NCBI GenBank assembly: GCA_007122335.1 | Contig: SKTZ01000029.1 | Location: 5,593-69,592, forward strand | DNA from: Bacillota bacterium | GTDB lineage: Bacteria > Bacillota > Halanaerobiia > B1SED10-174 | Length of the DNA stretch: 64,000 nucleotides | Reading direction: 5' to 3' | Part shown: in pieces, positions 6,259 to 49,437 of the stretch | Layout of the letters: each line of letters starts with the position of its first letter | How positions within the stretch are numbered: position 1 is the first letter of the stretch | Translations under genes and position numbers: made by a program | The notes under the pieces: model-generated | What the model was told of the DNA's origin: nothing | The model's input: the letters and a program-made list of their open reading frames with translations, nothing else | Database searches by the model: none

Positions 6259-7522
6259 AGCAGCCCGGGTTTTAATGGTCCTGTTCTTTTTTGTTATGAT
6301 TTTCTGCGTATTATCTGAAAACCAGGTCCTGGCCCAGAAGGCGGGAGTTTTGAGTTTTGAGGGAAGACTTCATTCCCGTTATCTTGATCTGGCCGGGAAT
6401 AAACTGGTTGTGATCCTGCTTGACCTGGGGCGTTTGGACCTGGTTAAACCCCGGGAAATGGATAGAATTTTGCAGGATTTTGGGATCCGGTATTACCGGG
6501 ATCTTCAGGCTGAAGAAGTAAAAATGATTGGTGAAAGAGCAGGCATCGACCTTTTATTCGCCGGTTTTATTGAAAACCTTGAGGTTTACTGGGACTCAAA
6601 TCAGAGGCGTTATAAAGCGGAAGTAGAAATAACTGTTAGAATATACAATACTATTTCCGGTGGAGTCATCAGGATTATTAACCAGAGAGGGTCGGCTTCT
6701 CACGGGAATCGTGAAGATGCCCAATTTCAGGCGCTGGAGAATTGTTTTTCCTCGAATTTTATTCGCCAACTTAGGGAAGAATTTTTACTAACCAGCACAA
6801 TAAAAGAAATTGAAAACGATGAGATTTACTTTTTTGGGGGTAGAGATTTAGGAGTTAAAATCGGTTCCCGGTATCAAATCCTGCAAAAGGTGGCAGGGAC
6901 AACCCAGTACAAACAAATTGGTCTCCTGGAAGTAATTAGTGTTGAAAATGATTTTTCCAGGGGCAAAGTTTTATATGCGAGGGAACCTCTGCAGCATGAT
7001 TACTTACTGGAAGAAATGGTTTCCAAATCCAGGTTTAAGTTAAATCTTGGTTACAGTAACATGCCTTTTAAGATGGATGGTAGTTCGGGCCGGTTAAATA
7101 TCCCGGGAATTAGAGTTGGTAACGAGGTTCCTTTCTCCCATTCCAGCAAGGTGCTATTGGAATTTGCCGGAGGAGGAGGGGCATTTATTTTTGATATTGG
7201 CGGAGTTCATGTCCGGGAATTTCCCATAACTCCCGGTAGTTTTTATGGTACGCTTGGAGGTAGTGCAGGTTTTTCCATGGGTATGGTGGAAGGCTGTGGG
7301 GAGGTTCTTGGTTCAGCAGGGATTTTTGGAGAATTACTTGCCGGAGTTAAATACTATCCCCGCCAGGAGCACGGAATGACCTTTTCCCTCGAAGGAGTTG
7401 GTCGTCTGGCTACACCCCTAACGCGCTGGCAGGATATAAATGAGGGGAATGTCTCACCTTGTGGTCCCAACTTGAGAACTTCAGGTTTGGGAATCCGAAT
7501 TTCAGTGGGTTTAGGGTTCTGA
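6242..7522 (+). CDS. Exported protein: signal peptide, CsgG/LpoB-like N-terminal region and Gly-rich beta-rich C-terminal domain ending in Phe
   Basis: MRIRSKAARVLMVLFFFVMIFCVLSENQVLAQ is a signal peptide. The C-terminus ...SGLGIRISVGLGF resembles an outer-membrane beta-barrel terminal strand. The start overlaps the macro gene by 17 nt. Confidence 0.55.
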   Translation: MRIRSKAARVLMVLFFFVMIFCVLSENQVLAQKAGVLSFEGRLHSRYLDLAGNKLVVILLDLGRLDLVKPREMDRILQDFGIRYYRDLQAEEVKMIGERAGIDLLFAGFIENLEVYWDSNQRRYKAEVEITVRIYNTISGGVIRIINQRGSASHGNREDAQFQALENCFSSNFIRQLREEFLLTSTIKEIENDEIYFFGGRDLGVKIGSRYQILQKVAGTTQYKQIGLLEVISVENDFSRGKVLYAREPLQHDYLLEEMVSKSRFKLNLGYSNMPFKMDGSSGRLNIPGIRVGNEVPFSHSSKVLLEFAGGGGAFIFDIGGVHVREFPITPGSFYGTLGGSAGFSMGMVEGCGEVLGSAGIFGELLAGVKYYPRQEHGMTFSLEGVGRLATPLTRWQDINEGNVSPCGPNLRTSGLGIRISVGLGF

Positions 7523-12085: not shown

Positions 12086-12090
12086 ATTAA

Positions 12091-12117
12091 AGCCCCGCTG
12101 ATCGCGGGGCTTTTTTT
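12091..12117 (+). terminator. Rho-independent terminator
   Basis: GCCCCGC-TGATC-GCGGGGC followed by TTTTTTT. Confidence 0.85.
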
Positions 12118-12149: not shown

Positions 12150-12178
12150 TTGCAGGAAATTAAAATATGAAGTAGAAT
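12150..12178 (+). promoter_or_regulatory. Sigma-A-type promoter of the NAS-like/feo operon
   Basis: TTGCAG, 17-nt spacer, TAGAAT, about 45 nt upstream of ATG 12222. Confidence 0.45.
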
Positions 12179-12183
12179 AACTT

Positions 12184-12204
12184 AAATGAGGATGATTTTC
12201 ATTT
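12184..12204 (+). promoter_or_regulatory. Candidate metalloregulator (Fur-like) operator
   Basis: AT-rich inverted repeat AAATGA-N9-TCATTT, with inner ATGA-TTT-TCAT, located between the -10 element and the RBS of an operon ending in feoB. It resembles but does not equal the Fur 7-1-7 box. Confidence 0.25.
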
Positions 12205-12221
12205 TCAAAGGAGGAAAACCT

Positions 12222-12773
12222 ATGGGTTCACTTCCCAGAGCTGTTCAGTTACTGGAAAAAACCTGGACAAGCAGTCCATTAATGCAAAAAATATATTCGT
12301 CACCCTACCACGTTATTGTCAAAAGAGAGACAGGCCTGGCAGGGATAAGGGCAGGAGATCGGATTTTAAGTCTTGGCTGTGGAGCAATTCCTTTTACAGC
12401 AATTATCCTTAATCAGATTACCGGATGCCCTGTTTCAGCCCTGGATATTGATTTCGCGGCTTTAAATAAAGCCAGGGAGCTCCTGGAGAAAGCTGGTCTT
12501 AAGCAGATCAGGTTAATTGCCGGGAATGGTTGTTCTATTGACCTTTCTGGTTATTCAGTAATAATTACTGCACTTCAGGTTGAACCAAAAGGGGACATAA
12601 TTGACAACTTTCTGAGTAGTGCCAAACCAGGAGCCCGGCTGGTGATGAGGGTGCCCAGGAAAACTTTTGCAAACAGTTATGATCCGATTCCCTCCCAGTA
12701 CAAACCCGAAAAAGAAGTCAGCCAACCAATGATTACTTTTGGCAAATCGGTTTTATTCAGGAAAGCAGGTTAA
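12222..12773 (+). CDS. Nicotianamine-synthase-like SAM-binding (class I Rossmann) protein, paralog 1
   Basis: ILSLGCGAIPFTAIIL...ALDIDFAALNKARELLEKAGL...VIITALQVEPK...GARLVMRVPR resembles the NAS core (VGSGPxPLTSIVLA...DID...VFLAALVG...MLRSAHG). It is a clear paralog of 13742..14545. GGAGG RBS before ATG 12222. Confidence 0.55.
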   Translation: MGSLPRAVQLLEKTWTSSPLMQKIYSSPYHVIVKRETGLAGIRAGDRILSLGCGAIPFTAIILNQITGCPVSALDIDFAALNKARELLEKAGLKQIRLIAGNGCSIDLSGYSVIITALQVEPKGDIIDNFLSSAKPGARLVMRVPRKTFANSYDPIPSQYKPEKEVSQPMITFGKSVLFRKAG

Positions 12774-12774
12774 T

Positions 12775-13806
12775 ATGGCTAAAAAAACTGCTCTCGGTAC
12801 TGCAGGGATAATTCTTCTCCTGATTTTTATCTTCAGGGGGGGCTGGACTGATATCGTATCTGCCTGGGGCCAGGTCCCTTACTTCTGGCTTATAATTATG
12901 CTGGGACTCCAGGTTTTCACCCTTCTCTTGGGAGCTTACCAGTGGTACCACCTTTTAAAAAATAGAGAAAAAAGCCTCAGCCTGTTGGAAGTTTTTTCAA
13001 TAAATCTTGTGGGAAGTTTTGTTGAAAGTGTAACACCTTCGGTAAAATTGGGGGGAGAAGGGGCAAAAATATTCCTTCTAAAACAAAAAACCGGGCGACC
13101 TTATGCAGATCTCACAGGAGTTTTACTGGTTCACAAGTTTATTTCCCTGGTTCCTTTTCTGTTAATTCTCGGCCTGGTGTTATTCGCAGGATTATTAAAT
13201 TATTCAATTCCCGGCTTTATATACTGGAGTTTTGGGTCCTTGGTTGTTTTGCTTTTGGTTTTCTCCTGGGTAATTTTCCCGAAATGGGACCAGGAGGTTT
13301 CAGAGATGAGTTTGGGGTTTTTGCGAAAAATCAGAGGTTTCATTTTGCGAATGCTTGGGTCTGTCCGGGAAAGGAGAGAAAAGATATCATTTCTGCAAAT
13401 GTTTGCGATATCTATTTTGATCTGGTCTCTTTACCCGGTTAAGGTATTTATTTTAAGCCGACTTATTGGTATGGAAATTGATTTTCTCCTGGTCAGTGTA
13501 GCTACTTTTATAGCTTATTTGATCAGCATGCTTCCACTTTCCCCTGGAGGAATTGGCACTTATGAAGGAACACTTGCTGTAATTTTAAATTTGAATGGTA
13601 TTCCTTTAGCTGAAGGTCTGGGATTGGTTCTGCTTTCAAGAATAATTACTTTCTGGATCCCGCTTGTCTGGGCTGGTTTAGCAACAGTTATAACTATGAA
13701 GAATTACGAAGAAAAAGGTTTTTTAAAGGGAGGTAAGCAAAATGGCAGAAAAAAATCAGAGCAAATTACTGTATTACAAACTGCTGATAACCATCCAGGG
13801 ATTTGA
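12775..13806 (+). CDS. Flippase-like membrane protein (UPF0104 / lysyl-phosphatidylglycerol-synthase TM-region family)
   Basis: About 8 predicted TM helices and the family-typical LPLSPGGIGTYEGTLAVIL motif. The ATG lies 1 nt after the upstream stop. Confidence 0.65.
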   Translation: MAKKTALGTAGIILLLIFIFRGGWTDIVSAWGQVPYFWLIIMLGLQVFTLLLGAYQWYHLLKNREKSLSLLEVFSINLVGSFVESVTPSVKLGGEGAKIFLLKQKTGRPYADLTGVLLVHKFISLVPFLLILGLVLFAGLLNYSIPGFIYWSFGSLVVLLLVFSWVIFPKWDQEVSEMSLGFLRKIRGFILRMLGSVRERREKISFLQMFAISILIWSLYPVKVFILSRLIGMEIDFLLVSVATFIAYLISMLPLSPGGIGTYEGTLAVILNLNGIPLAEGLGLVLLSRIITFWIPLVWAGLATVITMKNYEEKGFLKGGKQNGRKKSEQITVLQTADNHPGI

Positions 13807-14545
13807 ATTTTTGGGAGCAAGTTTTCCAGCATTCGGAAAAGTGTATCATCGGATTTTTTATCAAAAACTGGTGGAAAAAGAGATGAAAATAGCGGGTATT
13901 GAACCCGGAATGCGGGTGATGCAGGTAGGGTGTGGGCCTTACCCTTTTTCTGCAATTATGCTTGCTGAAAAGGGCTGCAGGGTGGAAGCCATTGATAATG
14001 ATCCGATTGCCATTGAAAAGGCCGGGGAGGTCCTTGAGAAATTAGGCTTAAAAGAGAAGATTGATCTGAAGTTAATTGATGGTTATGAAGTAGAATACGG
14101 TGAATTCGACCGGGTTTTTGTCGCCATGCATGTTGAACCAAAAGACAGGGTGCTGCAAAAGGCAATCAGTGAGATGGGGGGAAAAGGGAAGGTTGTTTTC
14201 CGGAACCCCAGAGGTCTACTCAAGTTATTTTATAGTGGTGTGCAACTCAAGAAACTACCTTCGCCCATTTTTTCCCGGATAAAAGAAAAACTGGGGAAAG
14301 AATCTCTTTGTATTTCAAGTTGTAGGGTTAAAAACCTGACTGAAGCCGGATTTGGCGAAGAGTTGATTATAAAAAACGTTCCTGCCCACCCTTTATTGCC
14401 CGCCCTGGGAATTCGGCCGGGGAAGAAAGTATGCCTGAAAGGTCGACAGTATTTTAATGGCCCCTTTCTGGCTTTAGTAGATGGTCGGAAAGTAGCCCTG
14501 GGTTTTGATCTTGCACAATTGATTGAGGTTCAGGGCGGTGAGTAA
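13742..14545 (+). CDS. Nicotianamine-synthase-like protein (paralog 2) fused to a C-terminal FeoA domain
   Basis: The N-terminal part reads VMQVGCGPYPFSAIMLAEKGCRVEAIDNDPIAIEKAGEVLEKLGL...RVFVAMHVEPK...GKVVFRNPRGLLKLFY (NAS-like). The C-terminal 70 aa, L.EAGFGEELIIKNV...LPALGIRPGKKVCL...GPFLALVDGRKVALGFDLAQLIEV, match the FeoA SH3-like domain. Start uncertain (65-nt overlap with the upstream gene). Confidence 0.6.
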   Translation: MAEKNQSKLLYYKLLITIQGFEFLGASFPAFGKVYHRIFYQKLVEKEMKIAGIEPGMRVMQVGCGPYPFSAIMLAEKGCRVEAIDNDPIAIEKAGEVLEKLGLKEKIDLKLIDGYEVEYGEFDRVFVAMHVEPKDRVLQKAISEMGGKGKVVFRNPRGLLKLFYSGVQLKKLPSPIFSRIKEKLGKESLCISSCRVKNLTEAGFGEELIIKNVPAHPLLPALGIRPGKKVCLKGRQYFNGPFLALVDGRKVALGFDLAQLIEVQGGE

Positions 14546-14547
14546 AT

Positions 14548-16320
14548 TTGAGTGGCAATAAGAACCGCAATAGAAAACGACACCACTGTGGTCAAAAACC
14601 GGAAAAGTTCAAACCAGGTGAAAAATCAATTCTTTTAATCGGTCCGCCAAACGTGGGTAAAAGCGTTTTCTTCAATTATTTTACGGGTCTTGAAGCCAGT
14701 GTGGGAAATTATGCGGGGACAACCGTTGAATTTTCCCGGGGCCGGATGGCCATCAGAGGGTTTCAATATGACCTGATTGATGTGCCTGGGACCTACACCC
14801 TTGATGCCACCAATCCTGCAGAAAAAGTAGCCGTGGATATGTTAAAGCAGCGGCCTGCAGGAATTGTCTGTGTCCTGGATGCCAATAGCCTTGAAAGCGG
14901 TCTGTACCTGTTGTATCAGGTTCTGGAATTTAAACTCCCTACAGTGGTTGCTATCAACCGGTCTGACCTGGCCCGCGAAAGGGGATATTTAACAGATTTT
15001 AATACCCTGGAAAGCGAACTGGGAATACCCGTAATCGAAACGGTTGCTTTAACCAGTCAGGGGCTGGAAGCTGTCCGAGAAAAAATTTTTTCGGCCCCGG
15101 TTTCAAGCGAGCCTCTGCCGGAAGTTAGTTCTCAACGCTGGGAACGGGCAGAAAAGATAGCGGGAAAAGCCCAAAAAATTAAAACTAGCAGGTCCGGGGA
15201 AACCAAAAGGCAAAAACTGGACCCCTGGTTAACAAATCCCTGGCCGGGTTTACCCCTTGCAGTTTTAATTTTATCCTTTATTTTTGCCATTATTATTGGT
15301 CTGGGAATGGGTCTCCGGCAATATATTCTCTTGCCTTTTTTCCGGGGGCTGGTTTTTCCTCCCCTTATTCAAGGGGTGGAGGGGATAATTCCTCCCGGAA
15401 TTATTCGGGATATTTTAATTGGAGAGTATGGATTCTTGATTAAAGGGCTGGAATGGCCTCTGGCTCTCGTTTTTCCCTATGTTCTCTCTTTTTATTTTGC
15501 CTTAAGTGTTTTGGAGGATAGTGGATATCTTCCTCGGTTTGGAATTTTGTTGGATGGAATAATGGCAAAAATTGGTCTACGTGGTTCAAACATTATCCCG
15601 CTTCTCCTTGGTTATGGTTGTGCAATACCGGGAATACTGGGAACAAGGGCCCTGGAATCAAAAAAGGAACGGATCATGATTTCCACAATGATTTCTCTCG
15701 CCGTTCCCTGTATTTCTCAATCCGGGGCATTTTTTGCCCTTTTAGCCGAAGTTTCTATCCTTGTTGTGCTGGCTCTTTTTGCTTTCTCCATTCTGGCAAT
15801 GTTTGTTGCTGGCCTGGTCATGGACCGCCTGCTCCCGGGGAAAAGAATGGATACAGTCCTGGAAATTCCAGAATTATTATTTCCCCGGCCCCGCTTCCTC
15901 GGGAGAAAAGTTTTGATGAGGATCAAGGGTTACATTTTTAATGGGGCTGTTCCAATGGTAATGGCGGTGGGAATTGCTTCCCTCTTTTATGAAACTGGAA
16001 TCCTTGTTTTCGTTGGGAGAATTCTCAGTCCCCTGATCGAACAATGGCTACGCCTGCCTCAGGAGGCCGCAGTTCCCCTGGTTTTAGGGATTGTTCGCAG
16101 GGAACTTGCCGTTTTGCCCCTGGTTGAAATGGGTTTATCGCAGACCCAGTTGTTGGTTGGGGCAATTGTAGCCCTGTTTTATGTGCCCTGTATTGCAGTC
16201 CTTGCAACCCTTGCCCGGGAATTCAACCTTAAAATAGCTGCCCTGATCCTACTCGTAACAGTAGCAACTGCTTTTTTAACCGGAGGCCTTTTGGCCAGAA
16301 TTTTGGAATTGATATTTTAA
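14548..16320 (+). CDS. feoB: Ferrous iron transport protein B
   Basis: N-terminal G domain (GPPNVGKS, DVPGTY, AINRSD) followed by a polytopic gate/nucleoside-recognition membrane domain. The TTG start lies 2 nt after the upstream stop. Confidence 0.9.
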   Translation: MSGNKNRNRKRHHCGQKPEKFKPGEKSILLIGPPNVGKSVFFNYFTGLEASVGNYAGTTVEFSRGRMAIRGFQYDLIDVPGTYTLDATNPAEKVAVDMLKQRPAGIVCVLDANSLESGLYLLYQVLEFKLPTVVAINRSDLARERGYLTDFNTLESELGIPVIETVALTSQGLEAVREKIFSAPVSSEPLPEVSSQRWERAEKIAGKAQKIKTSRSGETKRQKLDPWLTNPWPGLPLAVLILSFIFAIIIGLGMGLRQYILLPFFRGLVFPPLIQGVEGIIPPGIIRDILIGEYGFLIKGLEWPLALVFPYVLSFYFALSVLEDSGYLPRFGILLDGIMAKIGLRGSNIIPLLLGYGCAIPGILGTRALESKKERIMISTMISLAVPCISQSGAFFALLAEVSILVVLALFAFSILAMFVAGLVMDRLLPGKRMDTVLEIPELLFPRPRFLGRKVLMRIKGYIFNGAVPMVMAVGIASLFYETGILVFVGRILSPLIEQWLRLPQEAAVPLVLGIVRRELAVLPLVEMGLSQTQLLVGAIVALFYVPCIAVLATLAREFNLKIAALILLVTVATAFLTGGLLARILELIF

Positions 16321-16345
16321 AAAGCCCCTCGGGGGCTTTTTTTTA
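16321..16345. terminator. Bidirectional rho-independent terminator between feoB and the convergent gene
   Basis: AAAAGCCCC-TCG-GGGGCTTTTTTTT, with A-run and T-run flanks serving both strands. Confidence 0.85.
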
Positions 16346-17416
16346 TGCAGAATTACATTTTCTCTGCTGGTTCATCAGATCAACGAAGGCTTCCAAACGC
16401 GTTTCAACCCCTGCCTGGCCAGTTTGTTCGTCAATAAAAAAGGTCAGGACAGGGATCCCATTCACCTTGCTCAAATGGGGCATTATGCTTTTGGCGACAA
16501 TTTCAGGAATGCAGGTAAAGGGGGCCAGCTGGACTACACCGTTAAAACCTTTTTCGGCGAAATGGACAACATCACCAACACTGTTCTGCCCGTGTCCGCC
16601 AATGACTAAAGGAAGGTAGGGCTGGGCTCTTTCCTTGGCTTCCCTTTCCCCGTGGGCCACAACATCGTGCCGGGTAAAACTGGTTAGAAAAATGGTCCGC
16701 CGGGGAATTACCCCCATGTGGCCCAGGGTTTCTTCAAGGAAAAAATTCGCTGCTGGTTCAAGCTGGACATATATTTCCCCGATAATTCCTACTTTTAAAG
16801 GCTCAAAATCCAGGTTCTGGGGAACTTTCTCCAGTTCTTTTAATCCTTCCCGGTGGGCTTCTTCAATCTCTTTGGTACTTCGAGCTGCTTCGAGGTAGCC
16901 AATACCTTTTCGAAAAGCCCTGCTGGTATCCCCCCGTTTTAATTCTCTTGCCCTGATTTCGTGGCTTTTTATTTCAATATCGTCCACCGATTTTAATTTG
17001 GCAAAGCCCCTACGAATTGAACGGTAAAAACCTCCCCAGGAACCCCCTTTTTTTAATTTAACTATCTTTTTGAAAAAATCAACAGGTTTTTTTAAAGGGG
17101 GAAAAAAGAAAATGAACTGGGGGTTGTAACCCATTTCCCTCAGGATGCGCCGGTGTAATTCACCGTAAAAGCCAGCCCTGCAGGGTCCATAACCCCCGGC
17201 GCTAACAATTATTTCTACCCCTTTGGGCAGGGTTTCCAGGTAAGTTCCCAAAACCAGCTTGAAAGGAATACAGGCAAATTCAGGAGCATACTGAACTCCC
17301 AGGGAAAGAGTTTTAGGTGTTGGCCGGGGAGGAGCAATAACTTCATGGCCAATTTCCTCCAGCATTGATTGAAATACAATTGTAGATGTTCCCATGTGGG
17401 CGTATGTTACGCGCAT
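16343..17416 (-). CDS. 2-hydroxyacyl-CoA dehydratase-family / activase-associated protein (third gene of a split 'CoA-substrate-specific enzyme activase' system)
   Basis: A 357-aa ORF with features I recognise from the HgdB/BcrC-like dehydratase fold family (GGYGPCRAGFY, LAPFTCIPE). It lies directly downstream of a BadF/BcrAD ATPase. Confidence 0.55.
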   Translation of the reverse strand: MRVTYAHMGTSTIVFQSMLEEIGHEVIAPPRPTPKTLSLGVQYAPEFACIPFKLVLGTYLETLPKGVEIIVSAGGYGPCRAGFYGELHRRILREMGYNPQFIFFFPPLKKPVDFFKKIVKLKKGGSWGGFYRSIRRGFAKLKSVDDIEIKSHEIRARELKRGDTSRAFRKGIGYLEAARSTKEIEEAHREGLKELEKVPQNLDFEPLKVGIIGEIYVQLEPAANFFLEETLGHMGVIPRRTIFLTSFTRHDVVAHGEREAKERAQPYLPLVIGGHGQNSVGDVVHFAEKGFNGVVQLAPFTCIPEIVAKSIMPHLSKVNGIPVLTFFIDEQTGQAGVETRLEAFVDLMNQQRKCNSA

Positions 17417-17422
17417 TTTTTC

Positions 17423-18397
17423 TCACCCCGTTCTTTTTTCTTCCAGTTGATCCCACTTGCTGCAGCGACTACCCCAGCGGGCTAACAGTTCTCCTTCGGC
17501 CATTATATTAACAATTTCGCAGTTGTTAGGACAATCTTTACACTCAAAACTACTTGCTTCATACTGAAATTCGCTTAATTCAAAACCCAAAAACCTGGTT
17601 GGTTTGTCATTTTGAGCCGTGAGGCGTTTGGCGATTAAAGCGGCTCCAATTGCTCCCATCACATTGAAGTGCTGGGGGATTGTTATTTCTTCCCCCAGTG
17701 CTTTTTCAAAAGAAGCCTTAATTCCGGGGTTGGCTGCAACTCCTCCCTGGAAAACTATCGGGGCTAGGATATCCTTTCCCTTAGCTACATTATTCAGGTA
17801 GTTCCGAACAAGGGCTTCGCTTAGCCCGGCAATAATATCAGGAAAGCTGTGTCCGGTTTGTTGTTTGTGGATCATGTCGGATTCAGCAAAAACAGAGCAG
17901 CGTCCGGCTATGCGGACTGGATGGTTGCTTTTTAAGGCGAGTTCCCCAAATTCCTCTATTGGTATATTCAAACGGGCGGCTTGATGCTCAAGGAAGGAAC
18001 CTGTTCCAGCAGCACAGACTGTATTCATGGCAAAATCAACAACAACACCATTGCGGATAATTATGATCTTGGAGTCCTGCCCCCCAATTTCTAAAACGGT
18101 TTGCACATCGGGAACAACGTGGGTTGCTGCAACAGCGTGGGCCGTAATTTCGTTTTTTACTGTATCTGCACCAGCAATTACTCCCGCCAGGCGCCGGGCA
18201 CTTCCTGTGGTGGCAACCCCTGCAATTTCAACATTTTCCGGGATATCTTTGCCTGTTTTCTGAATACCCTGCTGGACAGCAGTGATAGGTTGCCCTCGTG
18301 TCCTGAGGTAATGAGAAGTCAGGAGATTATCATTTTCATCAATTATTACCAGGTTGGTACTTACAGAACCAACGTCAATTCCCAGGTATCCCTTCAC
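17423..18397 (-). CDS. BadF/BadG/BcrA/BcrD-type ATPase (2-hydroxyacyl-CoA dehydratase activator-like)
   Basis: ASKHA-fold motifs GIDVGSVSTNLVII, EIGGQDSK, CAAGTGSFL and FQGGVAANPG. The C-terminal Cys cluster is CKDCPNNCE...WGSRCSKW. Confidence 0.8.
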   Translation of the reverse strand: MKGYLGIDVGSVSTNLVIIDENDNLLTSHYLRTRGQPITAVQQGIQKTGKDIPENVEIAGVATTGSARRLAGVIAGADTVKNEITAHAVAATHVVPDVQTVLEIGGQDSKIIIIRNGVVVDFAMNTVCAAGTGSFLEHQAARLNIPIEEFGELALKSNHPVRIAGRCSVFAESDMIHKQQTGHSFPDIIAGLSEALVRNYLNNVAKGKDILAPIVFQGGVAANPGIKASFEKALGEEITIPQHFNVMGAIGAALIAKRLTAQNDKPTRFLGFELSEFQYEASSFECKDCPNNCEIVNIMAEGELLARWGSRCSKWDQLEEKRTG

Positions 18398-19394
18398 TTA
18401 ACTTTTCTCCCTTCGTCTCTTTTTTATGAATAAGCATATCTACAAAGGCTTCAAGACGGGTCAAAATTCCAGCTTCCCCGGAATGTTCATCAATACTAAC
18501 TGTAAGGAAAGGGAGTTGATTGTGGTTTTTGGCCTCAAGTTCAAGTAATTTATTGAGCATGGCGTCAGGTCCACAACCAAAAGCAGTTACATGGATTATA
18601 CCGTCTATGTTTTTTGCTTTTTCAATCAAGTGGAGAGCACTCCATGCAGCCCGGTTGCTGTAATACCAGAAGAAATTCTGAGGTAAGCGCCGGGACATTT
18701 TTCGCAAGCTATTGTTGGCAATGTTTTCGGGGGTGATAATCCCGATACCTATTTTCCGGAGGTTTTGCAGAAGATTTCCACTTATATAGGGGTCAAATAT
18801 TGAATAGGGGTAACCAACTACAGCAAGGGTTATTTTTTCCTTTCCAGGCCGGGGAAATTCAATATCCTTTAAAGGGGTATGTAGTTTTTCCAGAGCTTCG
18901 GAGGGAAAAAACCCCTTGCTTAAAAGATAATGGTATTTTTTGTGGATTTGCCCGGCTTTTAAATAACCCCGGATAATAGTTGTTTTTTTTGCAGAAAATT
19001 TAGTCCCAATTTTATATAGAAAGCCAAAAAGAGAGGCCCGAAACCTTCTGACCCGGAAAGTGGTATTAATAATCGGGGGGAGATCTTCCCGGGAAAACTT
19101 AACCATGTCAGGGAGCCCTAAAAACTTCGGGCAAAAAGTGCTTTTCCCATCCGCGCTCACCAAGCGGGGGATGAAGAGGAAGTCGACCTTGTTTTTCAGG
19201 GCCATGACGTGTCCGTGGTACAATTTTATCGGGACACAGGCGTCATTAACTGTTTCCTGGACACCCAGGTCCAGTATTTTTTTATTTGTAGGAGGGGATA
19301 AAACCACTTCTAAACCGAGTTCTTCTAAGAAGGTTTTCCAGAGAGGGTAAAAAGTATAATAAGCAAGAGTTCTTGGAATTCCTATTTTTACCAT
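18375..19394 (-). CDS. Activase-associated protein (DUF2229-like, acyl-CoA dehydratase activase-related)
   Basis: IGIPRTLAYYTFYPLWKTFLEELG...CVPIKLYHGH...FCPKFLGLPD is typical of the N-terminal module of the long fused activases. Start is ATG 19394 or GTG 19403. Confidence 0.6.
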   Translation of the reverse strand: MVKIGIPRTLAYYTFYPLWKTFLEELGLEVVLSPPTNKKILDLGVQETVNDACVPIKLYHGHVMALKNKVDFLFIPRLVSADGKSTFCPKFLGLPDMVKFSREDLPPIINTTFRVRRFRASLFGFLYKIGTKFSAKKTTIIRGYLKAGQIHKKYHYLLSKGFFPSEALEKLHTPLKDIEFPRPGKEKITLAVVGYPYSIFDPYISGNLLQNLRKIGIGIITPENIANNSLRKMSRRLPQNFFWYYSNRAAWSALHLIEKAKNIDGIIHVTAFGCGPDAMLNKLLELEAKNHNQLPFLTVSIDEHSGEAGILTRLEAFVDMLIHKKETKGEKLSEGIPGN

Positions 19395-19579
19395 GATTTT
19401 CACCCCGAGTCCAGAAATTAGAATTCAATGACCTTTTAAAAGTTCTTTTTCAGGAAAGCTTTCTCCTTCTCCGGCCGGCAATCTTTAAACTATAATAAAG
19501 GAAATATTGAAGAGAAAGAAGGTGGTAAAAGAAAAAAGCCGAAAGATATGTTACAAAAAAAACCAGGAGGAGGGTTAAG

Positions 19580-26916: not shown

Positions 26917-27894
26917 ATGCCAGCTAACCTTACTCCCCAGTATTATGAAGCAGAAAAGGCATATAAGCAGGCCAAAACCGTAGAAGAGAAAATTTCCGCT
27001 CTGCAGGAAATGTTAGCCGTTATTCCCAAACACAAGGGGACCGAAAAGCTGCAGGGGCAGTTAAAAAAGAAATTGTCTAAACTGCGGGAGGAAGGAGAGA
27101 AGAAGAGTAAATCCACTTCCACATATAACCCCTATCGAATAGATAAAGAAGGGGCAGGACAGATAATCCTTATTGGATTGCCCAATGTGGGAAAATCATC
27201 TGTCCTTGGAGCTCTAAGCAATGCCAGGGTAAATATCGCCGAATTTCCTTTTTCCACTGGCATCCCTCTTGCAGGGATGGTTCCCTATGAAGACGTAAAA
27301 ATCCAGGTAATTGATACCCCCCCTCTTGTTGTTGAAGATGTTCCAGGAGAAATGGTCGGGGCTGTCCAGAGAGCGGAAGCAGTGGTTATTGTAATCAATG
27401 CCGGGTCAGGAGAAGCCCTGGACCAGCTGAGTTCAACGGTTGATTTTCTTGAGGAAAAAAGATTGGTCCGAGAAGAAATCCCCGAAGGGGTAAAAGCATT
27501 TCGCCGGGAGGACCTGCTGGTTATCGCCAATAAAATTGATCTGCCAGGGGCCCAGGAAAACCTGGGAATAATAGACGAGCTTTATCCCGATTTAAGGATT
27601 TTGCCCATTTCTGTTAAAACAGGGAAAGGTTTAGAAGAAGTTCCCCGTGTTTTTTTTGAAATGCTTGATGTAATCAGGATCTACAGCAAGGTACCCGGAA
27701 AAGACCCTGATATGGAGGCGCCTTTCGTCCTCCGGCGGGGTGGCACTGTTTTGGAATTTGCTCAGGAAGTGCACAAGGATCTCGCCGATGGACTGGAAAA
27801 AGCCCGAATTTGGGGTTCCGCCAAATTTGATGGTCAACCGGTTCCCCGGGACCATGTCCTTGCTGATAAGGATATAGTTGAACTGCATACTTAA
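26917..27894 (+). CDS. DRG/Rbg-like OBG-superfamily GTPase with C-terminal TGS domain
   Basis: The N-terminal helical region (QEMLAVIPKHKGTEKLQGQLKKKLSKLREE) resembles DRG. G1 is GLPNVGKSS, G3 is DTPPL and NKID is G4. The C-terminal TGS-like region reads LRRGGTVLEFAQEVHKDL...ARIWGS....GQPV..DHVL.D.DIVEL. Confidence 0.75.
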   Translation: MPANLTPQYYEAEKAYKQAKTVEEKISALQEMLAVIPKHKGTEKLQGQLKKKLSKLREEGEKKSKSTSTYNPYRIDKEGAGQIILIGLPNVGKSSVLGALSNARVNIAEFPFSTGIPLAGMVPYEDVKIQVIDTPPLVVEDVPGEMVGAVQRAEAVVIVINAGSGEALDQLSSTVDFLEEKRLVREEIPEGVKAFRREDLLVIANKIDLPGAQENLGIIDELYPDLRILPISVKTGKGLEEVPRVFFEMLDVIRIYSKVPGKDPDMEAPFVLRRGGTVLEFAQEVHKDLADGLEKARIWGSAKFDGQPVPRDHVLADKDIVELHT

Positions 27895-40995: not shown

Positions 40996-41024
40996 TTGCA
41001 GTATTGATTTATTTGCAATAAAAT
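40996..41024 (+). promoter_or_regulatory. Sigma-A promoter of the mrp cluster
   Basis: TTGCAG, 17-nt spacer, TAAAAT, about 38 nt upstream of ATG 41062. Confidence 0.45.
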
Positions 41025-41061
41025 AGTAAGAGGACTGTTGTGGCTAACGGAGGTTTTACTT

Positions 41062-41553
41062 ATGTTTTTTTCCAAGGATGTCCTGGGAATGACAATAATT
41101 TTATATATTTTCTGGCTCCTTATTTCCTGGAGTTTACACTGGGTTAACCTTTTGCTGGGCTTTACCTTTGCTTTTTTTGTGGCCATCTTTATGGCCCCGG
41201 AAATCATAAAAAAAGAGGAAAGGCCGCCGTTTATTGCCCGAGGATTTTTTTTCCTGCGGTTTGTGTTTATTTTAATAAGGGAGATAATCAAAGCCAACAT
41301 CCAGGTTGTGCAGATTGTCCTCAGTCCCAAACTCAATATAACCCCCCAGTTTGTTGAAGTTAAGCAGGTCATGAGGTACCCGGTAACCCAGGTTTTGTGG
41401 GGCAACTCCATCACGCTAACACCGGGGACTTTAACCATAGATGTTGACGATAAAAAAATCCTGATTCATTTTTTAACCGGGGACCTTGTTTCTCACTTCC
41501 CCGATAACCCCGTTGGTAAAGCACTGGTCGAATTCGAGGGGAGATCAAAATGA
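41062..41553 (+). CDS. mnhE: Mrp/Mnh-type cation:proton antiporter subunit E
   Basis: WGNSITLTPGTLTIDV...ILIHFL is the MrpE signature. ATG 41062 lies 8 nt after GGAGG. Confidence 0.8.
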   Translation: MFFSKDVLGMTIILYIFWLLISWSLHWVNLLLGFTFAFFVAIFMAPEIIKKEERPPFIARGFFFLRFVFILIREIIKANIQVVQIVLSPKLNITPQFVEVKQVMRYPVTQVLWGNSITLTPGTLTIDVDDKKILIHFLTGDLVSHFPDNPVGKALVEFEGRSK

Positions 41554-41813
41554 TTGAAACTGCCTTTTTGGTGGCTGCTATTCTCCTGATGGTGAATGTT
41601 ATATTTTGCCTTTATCGGGCAGCAGTTGGTCCTACTCCGGGAGACCGGGTTGTCGCTATTAATATGATTACAAGTAAGACCATTGCGGTTATGGCCCTGG
41701 TTTCTTTTATGTACCATGAAGAACTGTTTCTTGATGTTGCAATTACTTATACCCTGATCGGTTATACAGCGACCATTTGTGTGGCTAAATACCTGGAATT
41801 GAAGAGGTTATAG
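41550..41813 (+). CDS. mnhF: Mrp/Mnh antiporter subunit F
   Basis: LYRAAVGPTPGDRVVAINMI...DVAITYTLIGYTATICVAKY. ATGA overlap with mnhE. Confidence 0.8.
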   Translation: MIETAFLVAAILLMVNVIFCLYRAAVGPTPGDRVVAINMITSKTIAVMALVSFMYHEELFLDVAITYTLIGYTATICVAKYLELKRL

Positions 41814-41825
41814 GAGGAGCAAGAA

Positions 41826-42146
41826 ATGCGGGAAATAATTGTAATGCTGTTTTTATTCACCGGTGTCTTCTTTTTTACAGTGGGAACAATCGGGGTTTTG
41901 CGCCTTCCCGATGTTTTTTGCCGCCTCCATGCCAATACAAAAAGTGATACCCTTGGTGTTGGTTTGGTCCTTTCTTCTTTAGTGCTTTATGAAGGACTTT
42001 CTTCAGCGGGAGTTAAAATAGTATTTATGATAATTTTTATCTTGATAACCAACCCCACTGCAGGCCATATTATTGCCCGAGCTTCTTATGATACAATTGT
42101 GGATTGGACCGGGCAGCTGGCCCGGCAAAAGGGTGGTGAGGAATAG
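41826..42146 (+). CDS. mnhG: Mrp/Mnh antiporter subunit G
   Basis: GTIGVLRLPDVFCRLHANTKSDTLG...NPTAGHIIARA. Confidence 0.8.
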   Translation: MREIIVMLFLFTGVFFFTVGTIGVLRLPDVFCRLHANTKSDTLGVGLVLSSLVLYEGLSSAGVKIVFMIIFILITNPTAGHIIARASYDTIVDWTGQLARQKGGEE

Positions 42147-42382
42147 TGGCGATCTTAGATCTCCTTTTATTGAGTATTCTTGTTCTCTGTGCTTTGGCCG
42201 CGGTTCGAACCCGGGATCTTCTTGGGGCAGTAATAATATATGCCGCTTATAGTCTTTTGATGGCAATTATCTGGCTACAACTGGGCTCACCTGATGTTGC
42301 GATTACGGAGGCTGCACTGGGAGCTGGAGTTACTACCATACTTATGATTGCCACCATTAGTAAGACGGGGAGGTATGAATGA
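42146..42382 (+). CDS. DUF4040-type small Mrp subunit (MrpA C-terminal / MbhD-like)
   Basis: AVRTRDLLGAVIIYAAYSLLMAIIWLQLGSPDVAITEAALGAGV. The GTG overlaps the mnhG stop. Confidence 0.7.
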   Translation: MAILDLLLLSILVLCALAAVRTRDLLGAVIIYAAYSLLMAIIWLQLGSPDVAITEAALGAGVTTILMIATISKTGRYE

Positions 42383-42735
42383 TGCGTCAAATTATCCCTT
42401 TTTTCTTAACCCTGGTCCTGGGAGCTGCTCTGCTACTGGTGGTCGCCGAAATGCCTCCGTTTGGGGATATAAATAACCCCGCTCATAATGTAGTTAGCGA
42501 ACGCTACCTGAATCAGGGAGTTCGGGAAACCGGAGCACAGAATATTGTCACTGCTATAATCACGGACTACCGTGCCTATGATACTCTGGGAGAGGTCACG
42601 GTTTTGTTTGCTGCTATTGCTGCAGTGCTTACTGTTTTAAACAGGTTGCGCTTGGGAGTAATCTGTCCTGAAGACAGGGAAAGGGGACTGACAGATGAGG
42701 ATGCAGGAGATCCTGATACTGAAGATAGTTGTTAG
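42379..42735 (+). CDS. MnhB-related subunit (MbhE-like)
   Basis: NIVTAIITDYRAYDTLGEVTVLFAA is typical of the MnhB/MbhE N-terminal part, followed by an acidic tail. Confidence 0.65.
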   Translation: MMRQIIPFFLTLVLGAALLLVVAEMPPFGDINNPAHNVVSERYLNQGVRETGAQNIVTAIITDYRAYDTLGEVTVLFAAIAAVLTVLNRLRLGVICPEDRERGLTDEDAGDPDTEDSC

Positions 42736-43126
42736 ATTTGTTATTCCCTTTATCCAGGTCTATGGATTTTATGTAATTACTGCTGGACATCTTAGTCCTG
42801 GTGGTGGTTTTGCCGGGGGAACAATTGTTGCTGCCAGCATGGTTTTATATGCCCTGACTTTTGATGCTTCCCAGGGTCTTGAAAAACTCTCCCATGAAAG
42901 AGCATCCCTGTTTGAGAGTCTGGGAGCTATCTGGTATGTTGCCCTTGGTTTTTTGGGAATCCTTGTCGGAGGTAATTTCCTTACAAATGGGCAGATTGGA
43001 ATTCCTCTTGGCACACCGGGCTACCTGATAAGTGGGGGTTTGATTCCCCTTCTTTCTTTTGGGATTGGAATAAAAGTCGCAGTTACCGTTGTCAGCCTTT
43101 ATTATTCGCTGGTTGAGGAGGATTAG
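42695..43126 (+). CDS. mnhB: Mrp/Mnh antiporter subunit B domain protein
   Basis: HLSPGGGFAGGTIVAAS is the MnhB-domain signature. Start uncertain (41-nt overlap with the previous ORF; ATG 42701 is also possible). Confidence 0.7.
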   Translation: MRMQEILILKIVVRFVIPFIQVYGFYVITAGHLSPGGGFAGGTIVAASMVLYALTFDASQGLEKLSHERASLFESLGAIWYVALGFLGILVGGNFLTNGQIGIPLGTPGYLISGGLIPLLSFGIGIKVAVTVVSLYYSLVEED

Positions 43127-43128
43127 TT

Positions 43129-43506
43129 ATGGCCGAAGCCCTTGCAGCCCTGGGCCAGAATTATTTCTTTTATTATGCTCTTATTCTTTTTATGGTTGGA
43201 TTTTATACCACACTGAGCCATTCAAATATTTTAAAAAAAATCATTGGGATCAATATAATGGAAACCTCAATATTCCTATTTTTTGTTGCCCTTGGTTATG
43301 TTGAGGGTGGGCAGGCTCCAATAATGGGTAGAGGAGCCGAAGGAGGGCCTTATATGAATCCCCTGCCCTCGGCCTTGATTCTTACTGGAATTGTTGTATC
43401 GGTAAGTATTACGGCTTTTGCCCTGGCTTTGATGGTTAAACTTTATCATTTTTATGGAACCCTTGACGCTGATGAAATTGTTATGCTGCGAGGAGAAAGA
43501 CAATGA
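43129..43506 (+). CDS. mnhC: Mrp/Mnh antiporter subunit C (NuoK-like)
   Basis: Three TM helices with IIGINIMETSIFLFFVALG...ALILTGIVVSVSITAFALAL. Confidence 0.8.
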   Translation: MAEALAALGQNYFFYYALILFMVGFYTTLSHSNILKKIIGINIMETSIFLFFVALGYVEGGQAPIMGRGAEGGPYMNPLPSALILTGIVVSVSITAFALALMVKLYHFYGTLDADEIVMLRGERQ

Positions 43507-44993
43507 TATATCAGCTACCTGTTCTAATTGTGGTCCAACTTCTTTTGGGTTCTTTTCTTATGCCCATTGTGGGGAGGATTCGCAATCAGCTAATCCCCCA
43601 TATTTCGCTGTTTTTAATGGGTCTCGCCAATGTTTTCTCTATAATTTTACTTTTCCGGGTTGTCCGGGAAGGAAACATTCACTACCACCTTGGAAACTGG
43701 GCACCTCCCTGGGGCATTGAAATTGTTGCAGACCTTTTAGGTGCCTACATGGCAGTTATTATTACGGGAATAAGCTTTTTGGTCCTGGTTTTTGCCTGGC
43801 GGGATATTCAGAGAGAAATAAATTACGCCCTCAGGGGCTGGTTTTATACCCTGGTCCTACTGATTTCCGGGGCAATGGTAGGAATGGTTTTAACCAATGA
43901 TTTGTTCAATCTTTATGTTATGGTTGAAATCGTATCCCTTTGTGGTCCCGCCCTTGTGGCTATCCGGAACAACCGGCTTGCTGTGGAAGCAGGCTTTAAA
44001 TATCTGGTAATGATTGCTCTTGGTTCGGGCCCGATTCTTTTCGGGATTGCTCTAATTTATATGATTACCGGCCATTTGAACATGACTTTCGCCGGCCAGG
44101 AAGTATTAAATGTAATTCATGAATATCCCAGAGTTGCTCTTTTAGCCCAGGCCTTTTTCATCGTAGGTTTTGGGGTTAAGGCGGCCCTTTTTCCCCTGCA
44201 TGTCTGGCTCCCAGATGCTTATACTTCCGCACCTTCCCCCTCAAGTGCTCTTCTGGCCGGACTTGCGGCAAAAGTATATATAGTTGGTTTGACCCGGGTC
44301 CTTTTCAATCTTTATGGAATTGACGTACTTGCTACCACACCGCTTTTTACCATTCTCAAAGTAATGGCGGTGGCAGGGATTATCATGGGTTCAATAATGG
44401 CTCTAAACCAGAAAGATATAAAAAGGTTGGTGGCCTATTCAAGTGTTGCTCAAATTGGGTACATATTCCTGGGGCTTAGCCTGGCTACAGGGTTTAGTGT
44501 AACCGGGGCTATTCTCCACATTTTGAATCATGCCTTAATAAAGTCAATGATGTTTCTCTGCTGTGGAGTAATTATTTACCAGAAAAAAACCAGCAATGTG
44601 GATGAACTGGGGGGAGTGGGGAAGGAATTTCCCATAACCATGATTTGCTTTGGTATTGGTGCTTTTGCCATGGTTGGTATTCCCATGCTCAATGGTTTCA
44701 TTAGCAAATGGTATATCAGCCTGGGAGCCCTGGAATATGGGGGTCTGGCTGGTTTAATGTATTTGCTTGTGATTATTATCAGCAGCCTTTTAAATGGTCT
44801 TTATTATCTACCGGTATTAATTAAAGCCTTTTTGGGTGGGGATTCCCAAAAAGAAACTGTTTTTGATAAAGCACCAATTACTTTGATATTGCCAATTGTA
44901 ATTTTGGCTGCAGGTATAATTATTCTGGGGTTATTACCCTTTGTTCCGCTGCAAATTGCTGCAGACGCGGCCCAGCACTTGTTGGGCCAGTAA
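43503..44993 (+). CDS. mnhD: Mrp subunit D / NuoN/M-like proton-conducting membrane subunit (copy 1)
   Basis: A 496-aa polytopic protein with FGVKAALFPLHVWLPDAYTSAPSP..., KRLVAYSSVAQIGY and HALIKSMMFL. Confidence 0.85.
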   Translation: MIYQLPVLIVVQLLLGSFLMPIVGRIRNQLIPHISLFLMGLANVFSIILLFRVVREGNIHYHLGNWAPPWGIEIVADLLGAYMAVIITGISFLVLVFAWRDIQREINYALRGWFYTLVLLISGAMVGMVLTNDLFNLYVMVEIVSLCGPALVAIRNNRLAVEAGFKYLVMIALGSGPILFGIALIYMITGHLNMTFAGQEVLNVIHEYPRVALLAQAFFIVGFGVKAALFPLHVWLPDAYTSAPSPSSALLAGLAAKVYIVGLTRVLFNLYGIDVLATTPLFTILKVMAVAGIIMGSIMALNQKDIKRLVAYSSVAQIGYIFLGLSLATGFSVTGAILHILNHALIKSMMFLCCGVIIYQKKTSNVDELGGVGKEFPITMICFGIGAFAMVGIPMLNGFISKWYISLGALEYGGLAGLMYLLVIIISSLLNGLYYLPVLIKAFLGGDSQKETVFDKAPITLILPIVILAAGIIILGLLPFVPLQIAADAAQHLLGQ

Positions 44994-45028
44994 AAAACAC
45001 TATGAATTAACAGGAGGAGGCAACCGGG

Positions 45029-46525: not shown

Positions 46526-46541
46526 GAAGGATGTAGATATA

Positions 46542-48956: not shown

Positions 48957-48972
48957 AAACCGGGGAGGCGAA

Positions 48973-49437
48973 ATGAATATTAAACATTTTATTGTGAATG
49001 TTGAAGCAGTAATTTCCCGTGGGGACAAGTGGTTGATAATTAAACGGAGTGAAAAGGAAGACCACGCACCTGGAGCCCTTGCTCTGGTGGGGGGGAAGGT
49101 AGAGGTTGACAAAGGAAATGTTATCGAAGATGTTTTAGAAAAAACTCTACACCGGGAGATTGAAGAAGAAGTCGGTATTGAGATAGAAAAAGATCTAGAG
49201 TATGTGGAAAGTAAATTTTTTGTCGCCGATGACAATCAGCCTGTTGTTGACCTTGTTTTTTTATGTCAATATAAAAGCGGTGAGGCAACTCCCGCAGACC
49301 CAGAGGAAGTTGCTGATGTATTCTGGAAAACCGAAGATGAGATCTTGGCAGATCCCAATACACCAGAATATTTAAAAAGGAGTTTGCAGAAAGCTTGGGA
49401 AGTAAAAAATGAAATGGATCCAGGATTAAATTCCTGA
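48973..49437 (+). CDS. NUDIX hydrolase
   Basis: Nudix box GGKVEVDKGNVIEDVLEKTLHREIEEEVGIEI. GGGGAGG RBS before ATG 48973. Confidence 0.85.
   Translation: MNIKHFIVNVEAVISRGDKWLIIKRSEKEDHAPGALALVGGKVEVDKGNVIEDVLEKTLHREIEEEVGIEIEKDLEYVESKFFVADDNQPVVDLVFLCQYKSGEATPADPEEVADVFWKTEDEILADPNTPEYLKRSLQKAWEVKNEMDPGLNS

Follow-up and report, generated by a model that had tools for sequence, protein, structure and literature searches.

A Feo-type iron operon with nicotianamine-synthase-like enzymes and a flippase-like protein in halo-alkaliphilic bacteria and archaea

Feo is the main anaerobic importer of iron, although how it works and what FeoA contributes are poorly understood. An operon found in a soda-lake anaerobe, a Bacillota bacterium (GTDB lineage Bacteria; Bacillota; Halanaerobiia; B1SED10-174) raises the question of why two enzymes resembling nicotianamine synthase (NAS), as well as a flippase-like membrane protein, should be encoded together with the iron transporter FeoB, one of the enzymes bearing a FeoA domain as its tail. 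The operon lies in a stretch of 64,000 nucleotides, referred to here as the window (GenBank assembly GCA_007122335.1, contig SKTZ01000029.1, positions 5,593 to 69,592 of the forward strand). We have found that its parts come from known families and that their combination, a Feo system with an enzymatic, flippase-linked accessory module, is new to the literature that was searched. We tentatively favor, at a confidence that falls short of probable, the reading that this is an iron-regulated variant of Feo in which an MprF-like "make and flip" module builds a chelating head group, probably on a lipid, that feeds FeoB.

The operon and its Feo and flippase-like products

Analysis of the open reading frames (ORFs) placed four co-directional genes, A, B, C and feoB, in one unit bounded by two terminators. 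The features of the unit, in positions of the window, are as follows.

12089-12113, plus strand: upstream intrinsic terminator found by scanning, a 10-bp stem with 7 GC pairs followed by a T-run
12150-12178, plus strand: putative promoter read from the sequence, -35 TTGCAG (12150-12155), 17-nt spacer, -10 TAGAAT (12173-12178)
12185-12207, plus strand: conserved Fur-box-like operator AATGAGGATGATTTTCATTTTCA, 23 nt between the putative -10 and the ribosome-binding site
12222-12773, plus strand: gene A, 183 aa, short NAS-like S-adenosylmethionine (SAM)-dependent enzyme of the "A-type"; ribosome-binding site GGAGG at 12210-12214
12775-13806, plus strand: gene B, 343 aa, flippase-like membrane protein of the MprF N-terminal / PplT family
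13742-14545, plus strand: gene C, 267 aa, NAS-like domain plus FeoA domain; ribosome-binding site GGGAGG at 13728-13733
13742-14326, plus strand: N-terminal part of gene C, aa 1-195, second NAS-like domain, of the "C-type"; ribosome-binding site 8 nt upstream
14333-14545, plus strand: C-terminal part of gene C, FeoA domain (aa 198-264) plus the stop codon
14548-16320, plus strand: feoB, 590 aa, TTG start; N-terminal G-domain followed by Gate/FeoB_C membrane domains
16319-16344, plus strand: downstream terminator hairpin AAAAAGCCCC-UCG-GGGGCUUUUU with a U-run, shared with the convergent downstream gene

The tight packing of the four genes, which had been described in a sequence-only reading of this locus, was confirmed, with the junctions now corrected to a 1-nt gap between A and B, a 65-nt overlap between B and C, with C in the +1 frame, and a 2-nt gap between C and feoB. 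It had also been claimed that the second paralog ends in a complete FeoA domain. Residues 198-264 of C do match FeoA (PF04023) at 38.8 bits, with a cut-off of 23 and E=9.7e-10, over profile positions 2-73 of 74, and feoB starts 2 nt downstream. No other ORF with a FeoA domain was found in the window, and C therefore supplies FeoA. The product of feoB was identified as FeoB by a score of 320.4 bits to TIGR00437, above the equivalog cut-off of 315.65, and carries the FeoB_N (E=2e-45), Gate (1e-25) and FeoB_C (2e-7) domains; its N-terminus is 91% identical in the related locus L001. Elsewhere in the window (26917-27894) a 325-aa GTPase with MMR_HSR1 and TGS domains has a weak FeoB_N match through its G-domain, and it was rejected as a Feo component as the match is confined to that domain.

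The protein encoded between the two paralogs is flippase-like, as had been proposed. B matches the Pfam family LPG_synthase_TM (PF03706) over its full length, at 157.5 bits with a cut-off of 33.4 and E=7e-46 (profile positions 3-301 of 302), and the flippase-like domain TIGR00374 of NCBIfam at 102 bits (cut-off 43.2). With its 343 aa B lacks a second domain, so it is not an aminoacyl-phosphatidylglycerol synthase (NF033480, 35.9 bits against a cut-off of 600), and a single-sequence search of B against the PDB gave no match at E<0.01.

Both ends of the operon could be set. The upstream terminator closes the preceding gene of the beta-lactamase family (Pfam Beta-lactamase) and forms the 5' boundary. 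At the other end a terminator had been predicted, and a 10-bp stem (16319-16341, dG -13.6 kcal/mol, z=-2.2) with a U-run was indeed found between the convergent genes; it was not listed by the consensus scanner and was confirmed through folding instead. No riboswitch or leader RNA was detected, as an Rfam search of the operon and its leader gave sub-threshold chance matches only.

Two short nicotianamine-synthase-like paralogs

A and C share 33% identity across 173 residues (BLASTP, E=1e-25), in keeping with the proposal that they are paralogs. For both proteins the top match of the catalytic domain is Pfam NAS (PF03059), which at 27.2 bits for A and 29.6 bits for C is marginal against the cut-off of 27.1, while Methyltransf_31 scores about equally on the single sequences (26.8 bits for A and 29.5 bits for C, cut-off 27). 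It might be argued from these nearly level scores that A and C are methyltransferases, which would methylate a lipid head group by stepwise N-methylation in the manner of PmtA, or a protein such as FeoB, with B flipping the lipid or acting as an anchor. Databases do label members of the family "SAM-dependent methyltransferase", and phospholipid N-methyltransferases that are soluble and as small as about 200 aa are known. We consider this explanation a serious rival, though on balance an unlikely one. Where single sequences give near-equal scores, family profiles separate the two possibilities clearly. When the A-type family profile was searched against the PDB, the thermonicotianamine synthase MtNAS (PDB 3FPE) was matched at 1.1e-16 and CntL of S. 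aureus at 5e-15, with the next chain at 3e-7, behind by 8-9 orders of magnitude, and the C-type profile matched MtNAS at 1.2e-11 and the best methyltransferase at 3e-5, so that MtNAS and CntL stand far ahead of every methyltransferase.

The predicted folds point the same way. AlphaFold (AF2) models had pLDDT values of 90.5 (A) and 84 (C), and in a Foldseek search with the model of C the top four matches were MtNAS (E=1.4e-13, TM 0.61), followed at 8e-10 by CntL. The alignment covered 208 of the 264 residues of MtNAS, and MtNAS alone was aligned over the full length, N-terminal helices included. Taken together, the profile and fold searches uphold the earlier claim that both paralogs resemble NAS and CntL, which are closer to them than is any methyltransferase, and neither protein was placed firmly in an ordinary methyltransferase family. 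A CntL-type identity in the strict sense was not upheld. The CntL equivalog NF033601, which has a cut-off of 350, gave 27.6 and 17.0 bits, and this speaks for truncated NAS-like enzymes and against CntL orthologs.

In MtNAS, Tyr107 acts together with Glu81 to deprotonate the amine of the acceptor (PMC10491745, PMC10248798). In both profile alignments Tyr107 (Tyr106 of AtNAS1) is aligned with Y40 of C and Y29 of A, where it sits within a Y-x4-Y-x6-E pattern as it does in MtNAS, and its equivalent is nearly invariant in family sets of 44 and 138 members. P94, Y102 and E114, together with the GxGPxPxT, EPK and R..G..Y motifs, are also common to MtNAS and the family. The conservation of the NAS-specific N-terminal Tyr motif and of GxGPxPxT throughout the family counts against methyltransferases, as does the repeated fusion to FeoA described below, for which methylated lipids offer no obvious reason.

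The N-terminal region sets A and C apart from their relatives. About 65-80 N-terminal residues, belonging to the helical lid domain of NAS, are absent from both proteins, in which only some 45-55 residues precede the Rossmann core, and matches start at MtNAS residue 80 or later and at position 97-121 of the 276 in the Pfam NAS profile. As judged from their sequences, A and C are short NAS-like enzymes that form a distinct short branch of the NAS family, and not orthologs of NAS or CntL. By analogy they would transfer aminocarboxypropyl groups from SAM, since this is the sole chemistry known for their closest relatives. The lid covers the reaction chamber in MtNAS, and an active site left open by its loss would therefore fit a bulky acceptor.

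A module that recurs across phyla and domains

An exhaustive HMMER search found the family in 379 clusters (50% identity) at E<=1e-30, most members having 177-210 aa, and Pfam NAS was the family matched by most of them (98 of 138 representatives). All loci, about 41 of them non-redundant, were scored with home-made hidden Markov models. A flippase gene was present in 31 and Feo genes in 29, both were present in 21, and at least two NAS-like domains were encoded in 30; in the 17 loci that had at least 3 kb of sequence on both sides, the corresponding numbers were 13 with the flippase gene, 13 with Feo, 10 with both and 1 with neither. The co-occurrence with a flippase-like gene that the earlier reading had asked about is thus seen as direct adjacency in the 31 loci. 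Another 32 loci came from JGI metagenomes through a motif scan, almost all of them from Kulunda soda-lake sediment samples, and the A protein of the window was found in identical form in metagenome-assembled genomes (MAGs) and contigs of the same Kulunda sample series.

The set recurs in Halanaerobiales, Natranaerobius, Alkalispirochaeta and the archaeon Salinarchaeum, and its gene order is conserved in some of these lineages and rearranged in others. Four MAGs of Halobacteroidaceae have the order A-(B)-C-feoB, with B absent in two of them (L002, L004), and the order in Salinarchaeum sp. IM2453 is A-B-C-feoB, exactly as in the window. An ENA contig has flippase, NAS-like, NAS-like, feoA and feoB, and Natranaerobius thermophilus (L008) has feoA, NAS-like, flippase and feoB. 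In Alkalispirochaeta americana (L010) a NAS-like gene is followed by a 668-aa fusion of flippase, NAS-like and FeoA domains and then by feoB, and in the high-GC contig L005, B and A are divergent from C-feoB. Divergent rearrangements were seen in L016 and L035 as well.

Some of these loci have further features of their own. In L005 (311-2124), which has the most divergent NAS-like::FeoA protein, the neighbors include an AIRC (PurE/LarB-like) protein and a PP-loop ATPase-like ORF, and the proteins are very acidic, which suggests a salt-in halophile. A group II intron reverse transcriptase (RVT_1 and GIIM) lies directly downstream of feoB in Natranaerobius thermophilus (CP001034; L008 11003-12430). 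In Salinarchaeum sp. IM2453 another LPG_synthase_TM gene, a more distant one, follows 4 kb downstream of the module (L019 13656-14681), adjoining an HVO_2718-family gene and a PadR regulator. A haloarchaeal methyltransferase forming the methyl ester of phosphatidylglycerophosphate was rejected as an identity for the enzymes, as the module, set against the distribution of that lipid, is mostly bacterial and occurs in few haloarchaea only.

Fusions tie the parts together further. NAS-like plus FeoA was seen in seven of the longer members tested, and all longer members tested carry FeoA; the reverse order, FeoA plus NAS-like, occurs in P0140, and two NAS-like domains plus FeoA in P0062 (592 aa). 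Flippase, NAS-like and FeoA domains are joined in P0166 (546 aa) as in L010, and flippase plus NAS-like in L031 (560 aa), which has no Feo gene within 8 kb. The fusions of L031, L010 and P0166 follow the order of MprF, with the transmembrane flippase first and the cytosolic enzyme after it. The parts of the module have thus been fused in at least five architectures and have moved between phyla and domains, and the conserved association of the four genes, on which the earlier reading was to be checked, is present across both and reinforced by these fusions. As for the boundary between B and C, the two genes overlap by 65 nt in the window (13742-13806), the stop of B abuts the start of C in L003 (2470-2480), and B and C form one polypeptide in Alkalispirochaeta (L010 7612-9618) and in P0166; this boundary seems to be a place where genes have fused or split repeatedly.

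It could be held that the genes have no functional link and stand together by chance or by shared ancestry in one lineage. The four closest loci do share flanking genes as well, and their synteny alone therefore proves little. Nevertheless, the association survives the rearrangements named above and changes of phylum and of domain, and it is found in five different fusion architectures, so that this explanation is already contradicted by the comparative data and retains almost no credibility.

Several loci have the flippase and one or two NAS-like genes with no Feo gene within 8 kb, and the flippase/NAS-like pair is therefore the core of the module. In four such loci (L030-L033) a shared ORF lies downstream of the NAS-like genes (for example, L032 4084-4824), with a signal-peptide-like N-terminus and calcineurin-like/5'-nucleotidase-like motifs (GGDYIGG, NHEYDYG), and this synteny is lineage-specific. 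At the edge of the family other contexts occur, the distant member P0052 having neither Feo nor flippase nearby; a member from Halobiforma lies on a contig of 1 kb, in which the gene context is unreadable.

A possible chelating lipid for FeoB

How the parts might work together can be pictured as follows. A and C would each move a SAM-derived 3-amino-3-carboxypropyl (aminobutyrate) unit onto an amine and would jointly build a nicotianamine-like polyamino-carboxylate group. The acceptor would most likely be the amine head group of a membrane lipid of the phosphatidylserine or phosphatidylethanolamine (PS/PE) type, modified at the cytoplasmic face, and B, as an MprF-type flippase, would move the chelating lipid outward, where it would capture Fe(II), scarce at high pH, and pass it to FeoB. 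The FeoA domain of C would dock the enzyme on the cytoplasmic G-domain of FeoB and so tether the process to the transporter, with the chelating lipid being made beside it, and a Fur-type repressor would turn the operon on at low iron. The product of the enzymes is taken as the likely cargo of the flippase-like protein because the layout is that of MprF, whose enzyme makes the lipid that its flippase translocates. That halo-alkaliphiles among both bacteria and archaea turn a phospholipid head group into a nicotianamine-like chelator, flipped outward as a membrane-anchored collector of Fe(II) for FeoB, is a version of the proposal that we hold to be possible but doubtful.

Control by iron is suggested by the region ahead of gene A. 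The putative promoter was not called by the consensus scan because its -35 fits only 3 of 6 positions. Its TTGCAG and TAGAAT elements do not vary among five Halobacteroidaceae loci, between which protein identity is only 55-85%. The single promoter that had been claimed for the operon is thus plausible by conservation and weak by consensus. The operator AATGAGGATGATTTTCATTTTCA is likewise invariant in all five related loci. It contains two overlapping Fur-box-like 15-mers (12187-12201 and 12193-12207), each with 3 mismatches to the Fur 7-1-7 box TGATAATNATTATCA; such matches are common in the window (12 against 3.6 expected), and the two 15-mers are therefore weak on their own. In Natranaerobius two sites are the sole Fur-box matches with at most 2 mismatches in 14.5 kb, where 0.23 would be expected; one (6545-6559, 2 mismatches) lies before feoA and the other (6919-6933, 1 mismatch) before the NAS-like gene. 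Iron-responsive repression of the operon, of the Fur type, is likely on these sequence grounds.

Among the neighbors of the module, a small PssA-like CDP-alcohol phosphatidyltransferase gene joins the flippase/NAS-like operon in two lineages (L016 and L042), its best match being the phosphatidylserine synthase PssA at 79 bits, below the equivalog cut-off. An unbiased clustering of all neighbors in the roughly 41 loci revealed no recurrent CntM, CntK, ABC, MFS, EamA or TonB component, and likewise no recurrent metallophore importer, outer-membrane receptor or CntE/CntI exporter. With no homolog of CntM or CntK recurring in its neighborhood, the module is unlikely to make the opine-type product considered in the sequence-only reading, and an opine pathway of the CntM type was rejected as no dehydrogenase recurs nearby. 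In three related loci (L025, L041, L050) a ferritin/Dps-like ORF is found near the module (for example, L050 2-439), which fits the iron theme.

A number of observations weigh against the chelating-lipid proposal. The flippase gene is absent from two of the five close relatives and from about 10 of the 41 loci, some of them on short contigs, and the PssA-like neighbor occurs in two lineages only. With regard to regulation, no fur gene was found in the window, and its Fur-box matches carry 3 mismatches each. With regard to the active site, the equivalent of Glu81 (Glu77 of AtNAS1, Glu84 of CntL) could not be placed by three profile alignments, of which the broader ones leave the region unaligned, or by an exploratory comparison with AtNAS1; the invariant Glu of the preceding helix (E22 in C, E12 in A) aligns linearly with E87 of MtNAS, not with E81. 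For the MprF-type domain, the activity of a broad scramblase has been proposed. Furthermore, the acceptors of all characterized NAS and CntL enzymes are soluble amino acids (PMC10491745).

This last point is also the first in favor of the soluble-metallophore model that builds on the sequence-only reading, in which A and C would add SAM-derived aminobutyrate units to a free amino acid, B would export the resulting nicotianamine- or thermonicotianamine-like chelator, and the iron would return through FeoB. NAS and CntL are the closest relatives of A and C, and both the linkage to Feo and the Fur-like operator fit metal acquisition. A lipid head group of the PS/PE type is favored over a soluble amino acid on circumstantial grounds, and the same grounds tell against the soluble product: because the LPG_synthase_TM/PplT family is tied only to lipids and their translocation, with lipid-enzyme fusions reported in a survey preprint; because PssA-like genes join the operon in two lineages; because A and C lack the lid with which MtNAS closes in its small substrates; because no metallophore transporter is present, neither an importer nor an MFS/EamA exporter recurring; and because the module is found with diderm, monoderm and archaeal envelopes alike and does without a receptor in the outer membrane. 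In addition, FeoB is known as a transporter of free Fe(II). Export of a soluble metallophore by a flippase-like protein is without precedent, and the fusions and PssA-like neighbors point at least equally to a lipid substrate; we regard the soluble model, too, as a serious rival that is on balance unlikely.

A further alternative would keep the nicotianamine-like molecule inside the cell, where it would take up Fe(II) at the exit of FeoB, with FeoA siting its synthesis and B having a separate or structural role. In its favor, FeoA is a partner of FeoB on the cytoplasmic side and is joined to the enzyme in many of the architectures, and in plants nicotianamine serves as a ligand of Fe(II) inside the cell (PMC10248798). 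This explanation leaves the near-constant flippase-like partner and its fusion to the enzyme unaccounted for, as it does the Feo-less flippase and NAS-like pairs and the PssA-like genes, and we judge it distinctly improbable. The chelating-lipid proposal, tentative as it is, is the one that we carry into the comparison with known systems.

The genes flanking the operon are unrelated to it. Upstream are an MR/MLE epimerase and a serine hydrolase, and downstream, at 16343-19403 on the minus strand, three convergent genes encode a BcrAD_BadFG ATPase and DUF2229/HGD-D proteins, a CoA-enzyme activase set whose synteny with the operon extends to the close relatives L001-L003. Further along (41000-49000) there is a run of hydrophobic ORFs that includes two Proton_antipo_M proteins (43503-44993 and 46542-48956), likely a Mrp-type cation/proton antiporter cluster, which fits an alkaliphile. 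GC skew is positive over nearly all of the window.

Compared with known systems, MtNAS is the best profile and predicted-fold match for both paralogs and shares with them the Rossmann SAM-binding core and the motifs described above. NAS differs in being one iterative enzyme, where the module has two specialized paralogs; the module proteins lack the N-terminal 65-80 residues and have Pfam scores at threshold, and no NAS is reported to be fused to FeoA or a flippase-like domain. The cnt operons for staphylopine, pseudopaline and yersinopine also have a NAS-like aminobutyrate transferase inside a metal-uptake operon, and CntL is the second-best solved relative; unlike them, the module has no recurrent CntM, CntK, ABC importer or CntE/CntI exporter, and its partner transporter is FeoB. 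With MprF, the lysyl-phosphatidylglycerol synthase/flippase, the module shares the Pfam family of the flippase domain, to which B belongs, and, in the relatives with fusions, the layout of a flippase domain N-terminal to a cytosolic enzyme, but it lacks the aminoacyl-phosphatidylglycerol synthase domain and has a NAS-like, SAM-dependent enzyme as partner. Membrane-tethered chelators are a known strategy against diffusive loss, as in the amphiphilic siderophores (marinobactins, amphibactins); these are products of nonribosomal peptide synthetases for Fe(III) and not phospholipid derivatives coupled to Feo. That SAM-dependent aminocarboxypropyl transfer to a lipid occurs in nature is known from the betaine-lipid synthase BtaA, a functional analogy, since BtaA is not homologous to NAS (PMC10491745).

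Canonical FeoAB(C) systems and FeoA-FeoB fusions resemble the module in that their FeoB has a G-domain and Gate domains as well and that a FeoA domain is encoded directly ahead of it, and differ from the module in that the FeoA of the module is the tail of an enzyme and that two further non-Feo genes stand in the operon. Every Feo operon surveyed has FeoA or a FeoA-like domain, and it was noted that in some cases "FeoA has an additional domain", with methyltransferase, nicotianamine and flippase never mentioned (PMC8749426). The PplT survey preprint reports rare fusions to SAM-methyltransferases and nothing on Feo or iron. In the literature on FeoB or FeoA with nicotianamine synthase, on flippases, on Feo diversity, on PplT and on iron in haloalkaliphiles and soda lakes, no description of the module was found. 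The suggestion that a NAS-FeoA fusion is undescribed holds in so far as no paper on it was found, and has to be qualified in that the architecture is already in databases, NCBI naming the Salinarchaeum protein "nicotianamine synthase family protein" and "FeoA domain-containing protein".

At pH ~10, in sulfidic brines rich in carbonate, anaerobes have to obtain iron from vanishingly low amounts of free Fe(II). The module is almost confined to the soda-lake habitat and has crossed between Bacteria and Archaea, which points to a new route for iron at high pH. The repeated welding of FeoA to an enzyme and a flippase-like protein gives a testable handle on the events at FeoB, and the module provides a candidate function for one branch of the widespread, largely uncharacterized PplT flippase family. 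Experiments are feasible, as Natranaerobius thermophilus and Salinarchaeum sp. IM2453 are cultured hosts with complete genomes. If the proposal is true, a lipid-anchored chelator would be categorically new. It would be the first metallophore of its sort to be anchored in a lipid, the NAS family would for the first time have a lipid as substrate, and FeoA would have its first partner that is an enzyme.

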